A DNA stretch of 64,000 nt from an uncultured Thermodesulfobacteriota bacterium. Its GTDB lineage: Bacteria > Desulfobacterota > GWC2-55-46 > JADFVP01. The stretch covers positions 21,608 through 85,607 of the forward strand of contig CAZEBZ010000001.1 of the NCBI GenBank assembly GCA_964510775.1. The letters are read 5' to 3'. Shown here piece after piece: positions 13,619-19,603 of the stretch. The notes beneath the pieces were generated by a model. The model made no database searches. It was not told where the DNA came from and worked only from the letters and a program-made list of their open reading frames with translations. Numbering within the stretch: position 1 is the first letter of the stretch; each line of letters begins with the position of its first letter. Made by a program: the position numbers and the translations under genes.

Positions 13619-14497
13619 TTACTCTGTCTTTTCTTCTTCTGCGCCTCTTATTTCAACAGATGTATGTCCGAATTTTTGAAACCTGTTTGTCTTTACCTTT
13701 ATATCACAGGGGTTGCAGTGGCCGTACACCGGGCAGGGGCGGAAGATATCCTCAAGCTCAAAGGCAACGTCGATTATACTTCCAACAGAGGGTCTGCCCT
13801 CGTAGAGGTCGCTGTGACAGCGAAAGACAGAGCCGTCAGGGCCCATAATCAGCTCTGTGGTCTTGCATAGTACGTCTTTATTGAATTCACCGTCACATGC
13901 CCCGCTGTACCTGTATGTGCCGTACATCTTACCCTCGAACTCGCCGAGAAATTCCTTTAGTCGAAAGTCTATACCCAGATCCACACAGTATTTTTGCGCA
14001 TCTAAAATAAGTTTATCCTGCGAAGGGTGCATGACGCCCCAGATGCCGATGCTGTAGCCCGCCTCCTGCAGTGTGAGGACTTTTTCTGCAAGGGGCCTTA
14101 GCTCCATGACCTGTGGGTGGTAGCTGACGCGTATGGAGGCGTAGGGCGAGTCCCGTTTTATCCTCTCAGGACTTACGTTGGCCATGAACTCATCTAAGTC
14201 AAACTGAAGGTTTGTAAGCAGATCAATGTTAAGGTCAGGGCGAAGGCCGTTGATTATCTCATAAAACCCCCTGTGCAGGCTCGGCTCTCCGCCCTGAAGG
14301 GTTATGGGCAGATCTGGTCTTGACTCTATGCGGTTAAGGGCCCGCACCCACTCGCCGCCGCTAAGAAGAGGTCTTGTGGCACCAACCTGGCCAAACCTGT
14401 TAATGCAGTAGCTGCACGTAAGGTTGCACGATAGTGTTAAGAACGCTGCTACGTAGTTGTAATGCTCAGGTATTTTTATAGGTGAGAGTGGTCTCAA
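13619..14497 (-). CDS. radical SAM enzyme with C-terminal Cys-rich (SPASM/twitch-like) region
   Basis: 292 aa; CNLTCSYC (CxxxCxxC) near N-terminus; additional C-terminal cysteines CHSDL...CPVYGHCNPC. Confidence 0.7.
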   Translation of the reverse strand: MRPLSPIKIPEHYNYVAAFLTLSCNLTCSYCINRFGQVGATRPLLSGGEWVRALNRIESRPDLPITLQGGEPSLHRGFYEIINGLRPDLNIDLLTNLQFDLDEFMANVSPERIKRDSPYASIRVSYHPQVMELRPLAEKVLTLQEAGYSIGIWGVMHPSQDKLILDAQKYCVDLGIDFRLKEFLGEFEGKMYGTYRYSGACDGEFNKDVLCKTTELIMGPDGSVFRCHSDLYEGRPSVGSIIDVAFELEDIFRPCPVYGHCNPCDIKVKTNRFQKFGHTSVEIRGAEEEKTE

Positions 14498-14502
14498 GGT
14501 GC

Positions 14503-15432
14503 TTATCCCCTTAGTAGTTTATCTATAGACGCAAAAACCCTCTTTGGGCTTATATCATACATGCAGGGCTTGTCCTTTACGCACTTTGTACTGAGACATG
14601 GCAGGCAGTCAAACTCCCCCTCTGGCAGCAGCTTGACACCGTCTTTAATATATATCTCACTCTCTTTTGTCGGGCCAAAGAGGGCTACTATCTTTTTTCC
14701 AAGGGCATGGGCTATGTGCAGGCCCAGGCTGTCGTTAGTTACAATAAGGCTAAGCGAGTTAATCCACTCTATATAATCCTCAATGGAGTTAAGACCTTTC
14801 TGCCAGCTCACGGTGTATTTATCACCGATAGTGGTCTCAAGCTCTTTCCAGTACTCAGGAGGCCAGGCCTTTAAGGGCCATTTGGCGCCTACGTTGTGGT
14901 TAAAACCTATGTCGTAGCGTACCTCTGACTTTGGTTGGTATCCAAGCATAGGTATCTCACCTCTCCACTTGGAGCCTACCATTGTAAAGAGTATCTCCTC
15001 CCAGTAATCGGGGTGCGCTATCTTGTCTTCTGGATTTGAGCAGATTTTTAGGGCGTGCTGAGAGCCCGTGTAGGCCTCGGCGCTTCCAATATCGGGCTCG
15101 AATCTGAAGCCAAAGCGTCTCCATGCAGTAAGGGAGTCAGAGAGGGCGCAGATGCCGGCGACTTTCTCGAGGTTGATAATGGTATCAAAACGCTCTGCCT
15201 TTAGCTGAAGAACAGTAGTCAGGTCGTAGGGCAGTATCCTCTTGATGAGTTTATTACCCTTCAGCAGAGAGATAGCCGCCTCATCAACGAGCCATGTAAC
15301 GTCGCTGTCTGTAAAGAGGGGAAGCAGTACAGTGCTTCTAAGCACGTCTCCCAGGCTTGATGTGTGGCTTATCTCGTCAACAAGGGTCTCGGAGAACCCG
15401 AGTTTTATAATCAGAACCTTTTCTTTTGCCAT
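14503..15432 (-). CDS. glycosyltransferase family 9 (ADP-heptose:LPS heptosyltransferase-like)
   Basis: 309 aa; N-terminal KVLIIKLGFSETLVDEISHTSSLGDVLRSTVLLPL typical of RfaF/RfaC-type GT9. Confidence 0.7.
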   Translation of the reverse strand: MAKEKVLIIKLGFSETLVDEISHTSSLGDVLRSTVLLPLFTDSDVTWLVDEAAISLLKGNKLIKRILPYDLTTVLQLKAERFDTIINLEKVAGICALSDSLTAWRRFGFRFEPDIGSAEAYTGSQHALKICSNPEDKIAHPDYWEEILFTMVGSKWRGEIPMLGYQPKSEVRYDIGFNHNVGAKWPLKAWPPEYWKELETTIGDKYTVSWQKGLNSIEDYIEWINSLSLIVTNDSLGLHIAHALGKKIVALFGPTKESEIYIKDGVKLLPEGEFDCLPCLSTKCVKDKPCMYDISPKRVFASIDKLLRG

Positions 15433-15635
15433 TGCCTGTGACCTCTTGTCTTGTTATCAGCAGGGGACTTAATAAAGAAGCTGCCGCCTCTTTGCCTTTC
15501 TCAAAAGTCTCCGGGTTATCTTCTTCATTCTCGCATTGGCCTCTATATTACCGCAAGGCCGGTACTGCTTACTTTATTATAATAAATAAAGTCAAATTAG
15601 CCGTCAATATCTATAATAAAGAGTGAGTTCTATGT

Positions 15636-17452: not shown

Positions 17453-17461
17453 TTTTTGGCC

Positions 17462-18517
17462 TCAGTTTCTCTGGAAGAGGTCTGCGTACAGCGCCTCTGC
17501 CTCGGGGTAGGGGCTCGAATGAGCGTAGGCAAGGGCCTCGTTAAATTCATTCATTATATTCTCTGAAATGGTCTCAAACTTTTTATCTCTTACTAAGTCG
17601 CTTTTTCGTAGTGCTTCCTTAAAATTTTTTACAGGACATCTTTTCATCCAGTGGAGAAGTTCTTCTTTTGAACGTGCTCCTTTCTCATAATCCACTTCAG
17701 GGCCAACGTGGCCCTTCCAGCGGTAGGTACGGGCCTCGATAAGGCTCGGTCCGCCTCCGCTGCGGGCAAGTTCTACGGCCTCAATTGCGGCCTTATAGAC
17801 CTCAATTACGTTATTTCCGTCTACACAGGCTCCGGGGACTCCAAAGGCCTGTGCCGAGCGAGCTATCTCGCAGGAGTTCTGCCGTGAGGACTGCGGTGAG
17901 TTTGTGGCATAAAAATTATTCTCGCAGACAAAGACAACGGGTAGTTTTTTTAGGGAGGCAAAGTTTATTGACTCGTAAAAGACGCCCTCGTCAAAGGCTC
18001 CGTCGCCAAAGAATACTACAGAGACCCTGCTGTCTTTCCTTATTCGCGAGGTGAGGGCAGTGCCCACAGCCATGGGTATACCTCCGCCAACTATGGCCGA
18101 GGTGCCGAGCATTCCTTTTTCCATGTCTATAATGTGCATGGAGCCGCCCTTACCTCTGCTGCAGCCCGTGGTTTTACCGTAAAATTCCGCCAGTAGTGAC
18201 CTTAGCGGCGTTCCTTTTGCGATGGCGTGGCCGTGACCTCGGTGATTGGAGACTATGTAGTCAGAGCTTTCAAGGCTCTGGCACACACCTGCGGCGATGG
18301 CTTCTTGACCGATGCAGAGATGTACAGGGCATTTAATCTCCTGCTCGGGATAAAGCTCTACTATCTTTTCCTCAAAGATCCGTATTTTGAGCATAGCGGT
18401 ATAGAGCTCAAGAAGGGTCTTTCGCGAGATTGCGGCAAGGTCTTCTGGATTAAAAGTTACATTGGCAGTTGTTTTCATAACTCTGCACCTGTCTAAAGGA
18501 TAAAGGCTTTTAATCAA
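17462..18517 (-). CDS. TPP-dependent dehydrogenase E1 component alpha subunit-like (acetoin/pyruvate dehydrogenase E1 alpha family)
   Basis: 351 aa; TPP motif GDGAFDEGVFYESINFASLKKLPVVFVCENN; HRGHGH motif. Confidence 0.7.
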   Translation of the reverse strand: MIKSLYPLDRCRVMKTTANVTFNPEDLAAISRKTLLELYTAMLKIRIFEEKIVELYPEQEIKCPVHLCIGQEAIAAGVCQSLESSDYIVSNHRGHGHAIAKGTPLRSLLAEFYGKTTGCSRGKGGSMHIIDMEKGMLGTSAIVGGGIPMAVGTALTSRIRKDSRVSVVFFGDGAFDEGVFYESINFASLKKLPVVFVCENNFYATNSPQSSRQNSCEIARSAQAFGVPGACVDGNNVIEVYKAAIEAVELARSGGGPSLIEARTYRWKGHVGPEVDYEKGARSKEELLHWMKRCPVKNFKEALRKSDLVRDKKFETISENIMNEFNEALAYAHSSPYPEAEALYADLFQRN

Positions 18518-18532
18518 GTCTGCTGCCGGCTT

Positions 18533-19603
18533 TTAGATGAAGTTGACATGCCCGGGAGGGTCGAGCTGATCTCGCAGAAACCTGTTAATAGAGTCCATTC
18601 TGCAGTTTACGCGGCACCCTGAGGCGTCAAGCTCGTTATTTACAAACTCCATGGTTCTTTTGCGTTTCTCACCTCTCCAGAGCTCTTTAAAACTATGCTC
18701 TGCAAGACTGCCGAAGAGAAATCTCTCATCGCTCAGGTACGCGCTGCAGCCCCAGAGCCCTGCGCCTGAATCAATATACGCCCAGAAAGGAAGGGCTACA
18801 CACCTGCTGTAACCGCGCTCTTCTTCGGCGAGCTTTTTCATGGTATTTATCCGAAATACAGCGCTGAAGCTATCTGTGCAGAGGGCCTTTAGCTCCTCTG
18901 CAAGGTGGTAGAACTCGCTGTAGTCTACGCCCTTGTACTCTGTTGTAATGGATTTCAGGTGCTGTGAGTATGGTTTTATTACGAGGTAATCAACGCCGAT
19001 CTCACGGGCGAGCCTCGCGAGGGGCAGCACCTCGTGGACGTTATCCGGCAGGAGTATGAGCTGCATGCCTATTGCCGTAGTAAGGCCCTCGGCTTCTCGA
19101 AACTTTACTGCACGAGTGAGGTTGTCTGTAACGCGTTTGAGATCCCCCTCCTCTGTGCGGTGCATCTTTGCGTAGGTCTGCTTTGTGGCGCCGTTGATAC
19201 TAATCTTTATCCACGTAATAGAGGCCATGGCAGCCTGCATTATTTTTTCCGTAAAGAGAACTCCGTTGCTTGTTACGGCAACGTCTATGCCTGATTGAAC
19301 TGTGTGGTTGATTATCTCGGAGATGTCTTTATGTAGAAATGGCTCGCCCTCACCGGCGTACATAACGGACTTAATGCCGAGGCCGCCCATCTCTTTAAGG
19401 CGTTTTTTTAATATCTCTGTATTAAGAAAGCGGTGCTGATAACCCATGTAGTCAAGGGCGCAGTATGTGCATCTGTGGTTACATGCCCCTGAGGGGGATA
19501 TCTCCACATAAATAGGGAAAATATCCTCACCACGAAGCCACTTTGCGACCCTCTCGGGGTGGTACATGAGTTTATGGCTGTCTATTCTGAATTTGTCACT
19601 CAA
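18533..19603 (-). CDS. radical SAM enzyme with SPASM-like C-terminal domain
   Basis: 356 aa; CNHRCTYC cluster motif; C-terminal CVALPFWAYIDSGAGLWGCSAY...SFKELW...CRVNC resembling a SPASM auxiliary-cluster domain. Confidence 0.7.
   Translation of the reverse strand: MSDKFRIDSHKLMYHPERVAKWLRGEDIFPIYVEISPSGACNHRCTYCALDYMGYQHRFLNTEILKKRLKEMGGLGIKSVMYAGEGEPFLHKDISEIINHTVQSGIDVAVTSNGVLFTEKIMQAAMASITWIKISINGATKQTYAKMHRTEEGDLKRVTDNLTRAVKFREAEGLTTAIGMQLILLPDNVHEVLPLARLAREIGVDYLVIKPYSQHLKSITTEYKGVDYSEFYHLAEELKALCTDSFSAVFRINTMKKLAEEERGYSRCVALPFWAYIDSGAGLWGCSAYLSDERFLFGSLAEHSFKELWRGEKRKRTMEFVNNELDASGCRVNCRMDSINRFLRDQLDPPGHVNFI

Follow-up and report, generated by a model that had tools for sequence, protein, structure and literature searches.

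Among the described systems closest to the locus considered here are the E1-like pairs AviB1/AviB2 of avilamycin synthesis and Pau11/Pau12 of paulomycin synthesis, for which introduction of a two-carbon branch from pyruvate is documented or proposed (PMC4425429, PMC4753412), and YerE of yersiniose synthesis in Yersinia pseudotuberculosis, a thiamine diphosphate (TPP)-dependent carboligase that places a two-carbon branch on a nucleotide-linked 4-keto sugar of a surface glycan (PMC4753412). The locus itself is a six-gene operon in a 64,000-nucleotide stretch of DNA (the window) from an uncultured Thermodesulfobacteriota bacterium (GenBank assembly GCA_964510775.1, contig CAZEBZ010000001.1, positions 21,608 to 85,607). 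Like the avilamycin and paulomycin clusters it has E1 alpha and beta genes without an E2 among sugar genes, and it is by this gene context that the two are likened. The antibiotic pathways, however, are aerobic pathways of actinomycetes (Streptomyces) in which SDR (short-chain dehydrogenase/reductase) dehydratases supply the keto-sugar and a GT1 enzyme transfers the product to an aglycone, whereas the system in the window has a radical S-adenosylmethionine (SAM) partner, a probable polyprenyl-phosphate carrier, and anaerobic hosts. The likeness to YerE comes from the acetolactate synthase (ALS)-type TPP enzymes that fill the E1 slot in some related clusters; YerE is a single flavoprotein of the ALS fold, whereas the window has an E1 pair and lacks CDP-hexose dehydratase genes.

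Other parts of the operon call for other comparisons. DesII and BlsE, the best solved-structure matches of its first radical SAM enzyme (rSAM-A), are both small-molecule radical enzymes that act on sugars. The ArnC/ArnT, GtrB/GtrC and DPMS/PMT systems have the flow that we envisage here, in which a nucleotide sugar, once tailored, is moved onto polyprenyl phosphate by a GT2 enzyme and from there to a periplasmic acceptor by a GT-C enzyme. Tailoring in the Arn pathway is the work of ArnA and ArnB, whereas here it would fall to radical SAM and TPP enzymes, and no flippase was identified; the GT2 also differs from ArnC, GtrB and DPMS in having no C-terminal membrane helices. Synthesis of an unusual sugar that feeds periplasmic glycosylation is a known type of system, and every element of it here has a precedent, although no curated family of these precedents is matched at the level of membership; what is unusual is the pairing of the enzymes. 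Glycan clusters of such kind are common in metagenome-assembled genomes (MAGs). Full-text literature searches returned no description of this cluster, of its rSAM-A/TPP module, or of the GT9/rSAM-B pair described below.

Our reading is that the operon may encode the cytoplasmic half of a system for periplasmic glycosylation, in which such a sugar is made and delivered, and taken as a whole we hold this to be about evenly poised between right and wrong. The six open reading frames (ORFs) lie on the minus strand between positions 13619 and 19603 of the window. An earlier note on this DNA had given exactly these coordinates, and Pfam and NCBIfam agree with its domain calls. In order of transcription the features are:

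18533-19603, minus strand: rSAM-A, 356 aa, a radical SAM enzyme with one C-terminal auxiliary-cluster domain (twitch or partial SPASM)
17462-18517, minus strand: E1 alpha, 351 aa, the TPP-binding subunit of a stand-alone, pyruvate-dehydrogenase-like E1
16400-17452, minus strand: E1 beta, 350 aa, the pyrimidine-binding and C-terminal E1 subunit
15636-16400, minus strand: GT2, 254 aa, a short glycosyltransferase of the DPM1/ArnC/PpgS-like type, whose predicted product is a polyprenyl-phosphate sugar
15433-15635, minus strand: spacer of 203 nt between GT2 and GT9, the position of two extra genes in relatives
14503-15432, minus strand: GT9, 309 aa, a divergent heptosyltransferase-family enzyme with a C-terminal four-Cys motif
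13619-14497, minus strand: rSAM-B, 292 aa, a second radical SAM enzyme with no subfamily match

From rSAM-A to rSAM-B the junctions measure 15, 9, -1, 203 and 5 nt. E1 beta and GT2 do overlap, at a TAATG (GCATAATGGCC), so that the tight packing noted earlier stands for the overlap and for the gaps of 15, 9 and 5 nt; it fails for the interval between GT2 and GT9, which is 203 nt and not 10-15.

The rSAM-A/TPP core across phyla

A scan with rSAM-A, using one genome per species, yielded 572 related stretches, and the locus comparison is based on the best 80 of these; all ORFs of the related loci were clustered into families and the proteins of the window were compared with the same loci. The 120 best database matches of rSAM-A are 57-100% identical to it, and identity is 55-86% across Thermodesulfobacteriota, Nitrospirota, Planctomycetota, Omnitrophota and Elusimicrobia. 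These phyla, with the Planctomycetota including anammox Brocadiaceae, also make up the best 80 stretches together with a few others; relatives of the sequence are labelled Thermodesulfobacteriota or 'Deltaproteobacteria' MAGs. Within the lineage of the window (56-86% protein identity) the gene order is rSAM-A, E1 alpha, E1 beta, GT2, a B12-binding radical SAM gene, a gene for a membrane protein of 162-168 aa, GT9 and rSAM-B. Because the same order recurs in dozens of independent genomes, and its core in several phyla, the arrangement is far beyond chance, and the neighbourhood comparison suggested in the earlier note came out in favour of its grouping.

The operon of the window is a reduced version of this conserved eight-gene cluster, having neither the B12-binding radical SAM gene (~494 aa) nor that for the 162-168-aa His-rich membrane protein. 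The window stands alone in this: every close relative (L006, L009, L010, L003 and others) has both genes at the position of the GT2-GT9 spacer, where relatives at 82-86% identity have 2-3 kb. No remnant of the missing B12-radical SAM gene was detectable in the 203-nt spacer, which looks like a clean deletion in the organism of the window.

In Nitrospirota and Omnitrophota the conserved gene order has a deoxyhypusine-synthase-like gene, a nucleotidyltransferase gene, and genes for an HldE-like protein (nucleotidyltransferase plus PfkB kinase) and a GmhA-like isomerase; there follow rSAM-A, TPP alpha/beta, GT2, a paralogue of rSAM-A, a PMT_2 gene and two small membrane protein genes. The HldE-like and GmhA-like proteins score well below the cutoffs of the heptose enzymes, which marks them as relatives of these and not as the housekeeping enzymes. 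The rSAM-A paralogue (~30% identity) is found in many related clusters, usually directly after GT2, and the window is without one. Examples among loci L005-L085 and beyond are L049 (14084-15220), L067 (4630-5733) and L087 (14131-15246); the paralogues share with rSAM-A an N-terminal DGHKL..H..RV..WLRGE and a C-terminal H.NFI motif.

The gene directly after rSAM-A encodes a TPP enzyme in 61 of the 68 loci with enough downstream sequence, ORFs being called crudely. Of the seven loci that seem to lack one, six do have a TPP gene: in five tblastn finds the E1 genes, and L035 has an ALS-type gene further along. The type of TPP enzyme varies. Most often (41 loci) it is an alpha subunit followed by a long beta subunit, these being mostly E1-type and 47-79% identical to those of the window, with a few split transketolases (21-28% identity to the window E1) among them. 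A transketolase N-terminal subunit with a short pyrimidine-binding subunit, that is a split transketolase, takes the slot in 14 loci; in four only an alpha subunit was called, and in two the enzyme is of the ALS type. ALS-type (YerE-type) enzymes occur in clusters L030, L035, L077 and L086, and Pfam confirmed the TPP_enzyme_N/M/C architecture of the type.

In the window itself the slot holds what its domains and motifs identify as a heterotetrameric (alpha2beta2) E1 of the 2-oxo acid dehydrogenase type. E1 alpha matches Pfam E1_dh (1.3e-72), with the GDG...ENN TPP motif and the active-site GH aligned and conserved relative to human and Geobacillus pyruvate dehydrogenase (PDH) E1; E1 beta matches Transket_pyr (2e-33) and Transketolase_C (1.5e-37), and the His of its AAQHSQ and the Glu of its PLAE are conserved. 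The operon holds neither E2 nor E3, none turned up among the 10 largest ORFs left in the window or the further window ORFs that were scanned, and no E2-like family occurs among the recurrent neighbour families of 82 related loci. The E1 pair is accordingly a stand-alone one, as had been thought from the window by itself, and the locus does not have the E2 and E3 that accompany E1 in a multienzyme pyruvate or acetoin dehydrogenase complex. Since three TPP folds occupy one slot without an E2, the role that they share would be the addition of a TPP-bound C2 carbanion to a carbonyl, and interchange of TPP types is what a two-carbon carboligase role would predict. The near-constant partners, rSAM-A and a TPP enzyme, form the core of the cluster.

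rSAM-A is the anchor of this conserved module. Its place in the radical SAM superfamily is indicated by a Pfam Radical_SAM match (PF04055, 4.7e-18, 66.4 bits), by a CNHRCTYC motif (CX3CX2C; C41/C45/C48) invariant among 12 sequences, and by the barrel in its AlphaFold2 (AF2) model (pLDDT 82.9). The rSAM-A start is a TTG at 19603, with GGAG 12-15 nt ahead of it; the public gene call gives only 344 aa. We take the TTG to be the correct start because it restores the invariant N-terminus of the family, DxFRIDSHKL, which the public call cuts off. The earlier note had seen both radical SAM proteins as SPASM enzymes, which is an overstatement and true only in a loose sense. The SPASM domain (PF13186 / TIGR04085) has a C-terminal seven- or eight-Cys motif binding two auxiliary [4Fe-4S] clusters; rSAM-A, at 18.9 bits against PF13186, stays under the cutoff (21.5), and no more than four of its C-terminal Cys residues are invariant (C268, C286, C330, C334). 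Four Cys are enough for one cluster, so rSAM-A is better described as twitch-like than as a full SPASM protein; rSAM-B has no SPASM match.

The nearest solved sequences to the rSAM-A family profile are BlsE (1.9e-9) and DesII (1.5e-8), with viperin, MoaA and BtrN also found, and DesII is the top Foldseek match of the model in the PDB (E 5e-17, TM 0.64-0.68). The scores against the DesII model TIGR04426 (49.5, cutoff 450) and the BlsE model TIGR04466 (45.3, cutoff 400) place this likeness at the level of superfamily and fold only. Taken together, profile and predicted fold make rSAM-A look like a radical enzyme of the sugar-nucleotide type rather than a peptide maturase. With its distinct invariant N- and C-terminal motifs it is, by sequence comparison, a tightly conserved family of its own.

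Proposed pathway and candidate acceptor

The substrate would be a nucleotide-activated sugar, probably a heptose from the ADP-heptose pool of the cell. We favour a heptose because related clusters carry either GmhA-like/HldE-like activation genes (32 loci) or GT9 (30 loci) and never both (0 of 82 loci), which suggests two alternative routes to a substrate of the heptose type, one through activation genes dedicated to it and the other through a GT9 drawing on ADP-heptose. rSAM-A would then take a hydrogen atom from the sugar to give a carbonyl (keto or aldehyde) without the use of oxygen. E1 alpha/beta would convert pyruvate to hydroxyethylidene-TPP and add the two-carbon unit to the sugar carbonyl, giving an acetyl- or hydroxyethyl-branched, or a two-carbon-extended, sugar. 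GT2 would transfer this to polyprenyl phosphate and, after flipping, a GT-C enzyme (here the 770-aa protein described below) would pass it to a periplasmic acceptor, most likely pilin. GT9 and rSAM-B may be a second paired module, whose work would be to use, provide or tailor a sugar of the heptose type. What is observed is which families the genes belong to, how they are linked, that one TPP type can stand in for another, and that both an E2 and a precursor peptide are lacking; the GT-C fold of the 770-aa neighbour comes from a model. What we propose is the substrate, the two reactions and the sequence in which they occur, and the acceptor.

The assignment of GT2 as a maker of polyprenyl-phosphate sugar is a prediction from its matches. 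It belongs to Pfam Glycos_transf_2 (3.7e-24), occurs in 49 of 81 related loci, and aligns over its full length only with polyprenyl-phosphate glycosyltransferases: Pyrococcus DPMS (5mlz, residues 7-233), ArnC (9bhc/8vxh, 6-217) and GtrB. In NCBIfam its full-length matches are PpgS (10-218 of a 226-position model), AglJ and a haloarchaeal Dol-P-hexose transferase, all below curated cutoffs. The acidic residues D48, D51 and D101-x-E are conserved, and the protein ends in an amphipathic segment, with no transmembrane helices.

The step beyond the carrier brings in the neighbours of the operon. It faces pilA, and the flanking features are:

12758-13240, plus strand: pilA, a type IV pilin (N_methyl motif 2.7e-9, G/FTLVELL), candidate acceptor
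10329-12641, plus strand: a 770-aa membrane protein with C-terminal TPR repeats, between pilR and pilA, predicted to be a GT-C enzyme
13270-13286, no strand: a GC-rich hairpin between the convergent pilA and operon
19604-19819, minus strand: the upstream intergenic region of the operon, common to the operon and a divergent selenoprotein gene

Along the plus strand pilB, pilT, pilC, pilS, pilR, the 770-aa gene and pilA precede the operon, with which pilA is convergent, as described earlier, at a distance of 378 nt. Pfam finds only TPR in the 770-aa protein (residues 580-770) and nothing in residues 1-580. In its AF2 model (pLDDT 87) the membrane and periplasmic part matches STT3, the archetypal GT-C enzyme, by Foldseek (E 7e-6 to 3e-5 over 520-670 columns; TM 0.38-0.46 normalised to the query and 0.44-0.54 to the target), which is moderate support for the fold. 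In the first loop D38 and D59 do not vary among 26 homologues, and the family is common in the lineage of the window. Direct comparison with the TMTC-like GT-C proteins of relatives found similarity confined to the TPR part, so the GT-C assignment rests on predicted fold. The 770-aa protein is on this basis a predicted GT-C glycosyltransferase that may use the sugar on its lipid carrier.

The earlier note had proposed a link to a GT-C enzyme, and the other loci strengthen it. At least 23 of 81 loci, from different phyla, have GT-C-type genes (PMT_2, TMTC-like TPR, YfhO-like or the 770-aa family) within the cluster or next to it. In GCA_016177845.1 (L088) pilB, pilT, pilC, pilS, pilR, a 770-aa homologue and pilA come in that order and are followed by genes for a TMTC-like TPR protein (569 aa) and a PMT_2 protein (557 aa) at 13029-16408, and then by the convergent eight-gene cluster. 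The counterpart in the window (13241-13618) is only 378 nt of non-coding DNA without these two genes, which would mean that its organism lost, or never had, the TMTC-like and PMT_2 transferases. A convergent pilA homologue is found at L006, L012, L014, L018, L020, L023, L027, L031, L038, L039 and L088, and convergence of pilR, the GT-C/TPR gene and pilA on the cluster holds for the window and for relatives whose proteins are as little as 60-70% identical. In the lineage of the window pilA is thus interspersed with as many as three GT-C genes, next to an operon with a GT2 of the polyprenyl-phosphate type, and this arrangement is the one expected for O-glycosylation of pilin from lipid-linked monosaccharides. 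The TfpW and TfpO/PilO loci of Pseudomonas aeruginosa have a multi-pass membrane glycosyltransferase encoded beside pilA, and TfpW is a GT-C enzyme that uses a polyprenyl-phosphate monosaccharide donor. In these loci as in the window the membrane glycosyltransferase adjoins pilA; the sugar here is presumably not arabinofuranose.

GT9 and rSAM-B form the other conserved pair. GT9 is a member of Pfam PF01075 (Glyco_transf_9; 4.2e-11, 43.1 bits, cutoff 22), and shares with WaaC, WaaF and WaaQ the GT9 fold and a conserved N-terminal GD motif. Unlike them it has an insertion near the N-terminus, a C-terminal four-Cys motif, an obligate radical SAM partner, and no LPS (lipopolysaccharide)-core genes nearby. 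It is far from the solved WaaF and 3tov structures, and across phyla it is 54-83% identical with C276/C279/C284/C290 and the Asp of SLGDV invariant; by sequence it is a distinct, highly conserved subfamily. rSAM-B, which accompanies GT9 in 24 of 26 loci, scores 28.4 bits against Radical_SAM PF04055, just under the cutoff of 29.5, and has no match to PF13186. Its CNLTCSYC motif (CX3CX2C; C24/C28/C31), invariant in 11 sequences, is our reason for counting it with rSAM-A in the radical SAM superfamily. The C-terminal Cys residues C211, C227, C255, C261 and C264 are invariant, with C201 present in most sequences, and their spacing is non-canonical. The profile searches proposed earlier, which were to sort both radical SAM proteins into DesII-like or maturase subfamilies, gave no such assignment: no NCBIfam model came near its cutoff for rSAM-A, rSAM-B or GT9.

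Several points weigh against the pathway as we have drawn it. The functions of all member families are read from gene context alone, and gene order tells nothing of the order of reactions. The E1 retains the His residues for lipoyl acylation, and its sequence by itself is compatible with an E2-dependent role. The identity of rSAM-A to DesII and BlsE is only about 15-19%, and its fold search ranks peptide SPASM/twitch enzymes (SuiB, SkfB) close behind DesII. The mutual exclusion of GT9 and HldE-like genes is confounded by phylogeny, so that the pattern is partly phylogenetic. Linkage to pilA is confined to a single lineage, where it could reflect inherited synteny; in other phyla the cluster has no pilA beside it and the acceptor must be something other than pilin. 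Finally, the window is without sugar-activation genes, a flippase or a reductase for the branch: HldE-like, GmhA-like, PseB, B12-radical SAM, hyp168 and PMT_2 genes were searched for in it and none was found, nor was a keto-sugar-forming SDR.

The two main rival readings keep the logic of the pathway and alter a single element. In the first the product would decorate LPS, at its inner core or lipid A, or else some other polymer of the envelope instead of pilin, with GT9 as a core heptosyltransferase, the GT-C protein as an ArnT-like modifier, and the position of pilA inherited by synteny. That GT9 belongs to the LPS heptosyltransferase family and that the GT2 + PMT_2 pair mirrors ArnC/ArnT would fit such a scheme, as would the clusters of Nitrospirota, Omnitrophota and Planctomycetota, which have GT-C genes of their own and no pilA; that of Kuenenia lies inside a large glycan locus with GT4, methyltransferase and aminotransferase genes. 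Against the models for LPS heptosyltransferases I, II and III, however, GT9 scores 36, 39.8 and 25.6, far under the cutoffs of 185, 134.6 and 170, and is therefore, in terms of sequence, a GT9-family protein that is not recognisable as WaaC, WaaF or WaaQ. There are, moreover, no lpx, waa or kds genes among the recurrent neighbours, and the GT-C genes interleaved with pilA resemble known pilin-glycosylation loci. We regard an LPS-type product as unlikely, though it deserves serious consideration. A likeness to the xap exopolysaccharide locus of Geobacter, also raised in the earlier note, found no support in the analysis.

Other chemistries and products

The second rival concerns the TPP step. 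Within the same kind of sugar pathway the TPP enzyme could decarboxylate or cleave a keto-acid or ketose intermediate, with no addition of two carbons, as in ulosonic-acid decarboxylation or transketolase-type chain shortening. E1s, transketolases and ALS-like enzymes all also decarboxylate or cleave C-C bonds; BlsE, the nearest sequence relative of rSAM-A, is a radical decarboxylase; and ketose-phosphate isomerase-like genes stand upstream in other phyla. The only reaction common to all three TPP types is nevertheless the attack of a C2 carbanion on a carbonyl, and the E1-like pairs and YerE in known sugar clusters install a two-carbon branch (PMC4425429, PMC4753412). This makes decarboxylation or cleavage distinctly unlikely in our estimation.

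Is the product a glycan at all? The conservation of rSAM-A, GT9 and rSAM-B across phyla (55-70%) is more typical of enzymes of cofactors or core lipids than of those of surface glycans, and enzymes of lipids and hopanoids are weakly similar to the B12-radical SAM neighbours, so that a lipid head group or a small-molecule cofactor, on which the glycosyltransferases would act, comes into consideration. Such a product seems improbable in view of the recurrent partners, which are glycan genes: GT2, GT-C of the PMT_2, YfhO and TMTC-like kinds, PseB, DegT, NeuB and GT4.

The E1 pair might also be the E1 of a conventional pyruvate or acetoin dehydrogenase, placed among glycan genes by chance, with its E2 and E3 encoded elsewhere. 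The window E1 is closest to pyruvate-specific E1s, with an intact TPP motif and with the Glu of the beta subunit and the two active-site His retained. The nearest PDB entry to E1 alpha is human PDH E1 alpha (1.1e-51), and those nearest to E1 beta are the human and G. stearothermophilus PDH E1 beta (~7e-78). E1 beta, with both catalytic His residues kept, passes the PDH E1 beta subfamily model NF006667 (343, cutoff 321); E1 alpha falls under the cutoff of the PDH equivalog TIGR03182 (336.6, cutoff 393.85). The pair is, however, translationally coupled inside the operon (9-nt and -1-nt junctions), is tied to rSAM-A across phyla, and is swapped there for transketolase or ALS-like enzymes with no E2 adjacent. 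We consider an ordinary E1 very improbable, and rejected it as the principal reading on finding no E2 or E3 in the window scans or neighbour families.

A RiPP (ribosomally synthesized and post-translationally modified peptide) cluster, with two radical SAM maturases acting on a peptide that the glycosyltransferases decorate, is scarcely credible: the N-terminal cores of SkfB and CteB are the only solved matches of rSAM-B above noise and SPASM/twitch maturases come second in the rSAM-A fold search, but peptidases, transporters and RiPP-recognition domains are absent, sugar-activation genes flank rSAM-A in 32 loci, and all peptide-maturase NCBIfam models score far below their cutoffs. The only small-ORF candidate for a precursor peptide nearby (13345-13551) has no homologue in any of ~85 related loci. 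The comparative evidence thus favours a sugar or glycan pathway over both a RiPP cluster and a catabolic dehydrogenase, as the earlier note had held, and its interpretation as a whole is partly supported.

Flanking features and the Kuenenia clusters

The hairpin at 13270-13286 has a stem of seven pairs, six of them G-C, followed by a T-run, and T-runs and A-runs flank it; from its sequence it is a strong terminator between pilA and the operon. A promoter-like site at 19741-19713 (minus strand) upstream of rSAM-A is a consensus match only. The spacer between GT2 and GT9 contains TTGACG-17-TATTAT at 15607-15579 (minus strand), a sigma-70-like match. The count of promoter-like sites in the operon region is not above chance, sigma-70-like matches being not enriched.

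Beyond rSAM-A lie a divergent PrdB/GrdB-like gene, a gene for a Big_7 protein and an Rnf operon. The PrdB/GrdB-like selenoprotein gene (19874-20611, plus strand; TIGR04483, 6.8e-36) has an in-frame TGA at 20387-20389, past which the frame runs ~73 codons further. The stop falls in LLTPG-*-G[IL]CNR (a UxxC motif); 17 of 18 relatives keep it, and identity to either side of it is 56-81%. Public annotation cuts the gene into two, and it is near the cluster throughout the lineage of the window. The hairpin that follows the TGA, a candidate selenocysteine insertion sequence (SECIS), has a folding energy that is not significant (z = -1.39). Elsewhere in the window (43142-44353, plus strand) is a gene for an S-adenosylmethionine synthetase matching PF01941 (1.3e-137), which we take to be the archaeal-type family rather than the usual bacterial MetK; the genome is rich in radical SAM enzymes.

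The clusters of two strains of Kuenenia stuttgartiensis, L086 (GCA_022180985.1) and L087 (GCA_002418245.1), have identical GT9, 203-aa ORF and rSAM-A. Past rSAM-A the two diverge. In one strain the next genes encode a split transketolase, a paralogue of rSAM-A, GT2 and rSAM-B. In the other they encode a HAD hydrolase, DJ-1, an ALS-like TPP enzyme of 858 aa, an altronate-dehydratase-like protein and a radical SAM protein. The O-glycan of the S-layer of K. stuttgartiensis contains an unidentified 174-Da residue, described as a putative dimethylated deoxyhexose 'or even something else' in a paper that contains no gene-cluster analysis (PMC5088730). By our own arithmetic the residue of a hydroxyethyl-branched dideoxyhexose (C8H14O4) is isobaric with this unit. 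The rSAM-A/TPP module could be the source of the 174-Da residue, which we offer only as a lead.

A broader claim, possible but doubtful as we see it, is that rSAM-A and its interchangeable TPP enzyme constitute an unrecognised, oxygen-independent module of two steps, spread over hundreds of uncultured anaerobes, that turns precursors of the nucleotide-heptose type into sugars with a C2 branch or an extended chain (octose to nonose), the products being delivered via polyprenyl phosphate and GT-C enzymes onto pilins and S-layers. If true, radical SAM chemistry joined to thiamine carboligation would be a widespread anaerobic route to higher-carbon or branched sugars, which have so far come only from a few antibiotic and O-antigen pathways with other enzymes. 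It would assign functions to three very conserved unnamed families (rSAM-A, the GT9 subfamily and rSAM-B), and would supply a testable gene set for pilin and S-layer glycosylation in lineages of Thermodesulfobacteriota, anammox bacteria, Nitrospirota and Omnitrophota, about whose surface glycans next to nothing is known. For pilus assembly and surface properties, a modified pilin in relatives of electroactive Desulfuromonadia-type bacteria would be of added interest.

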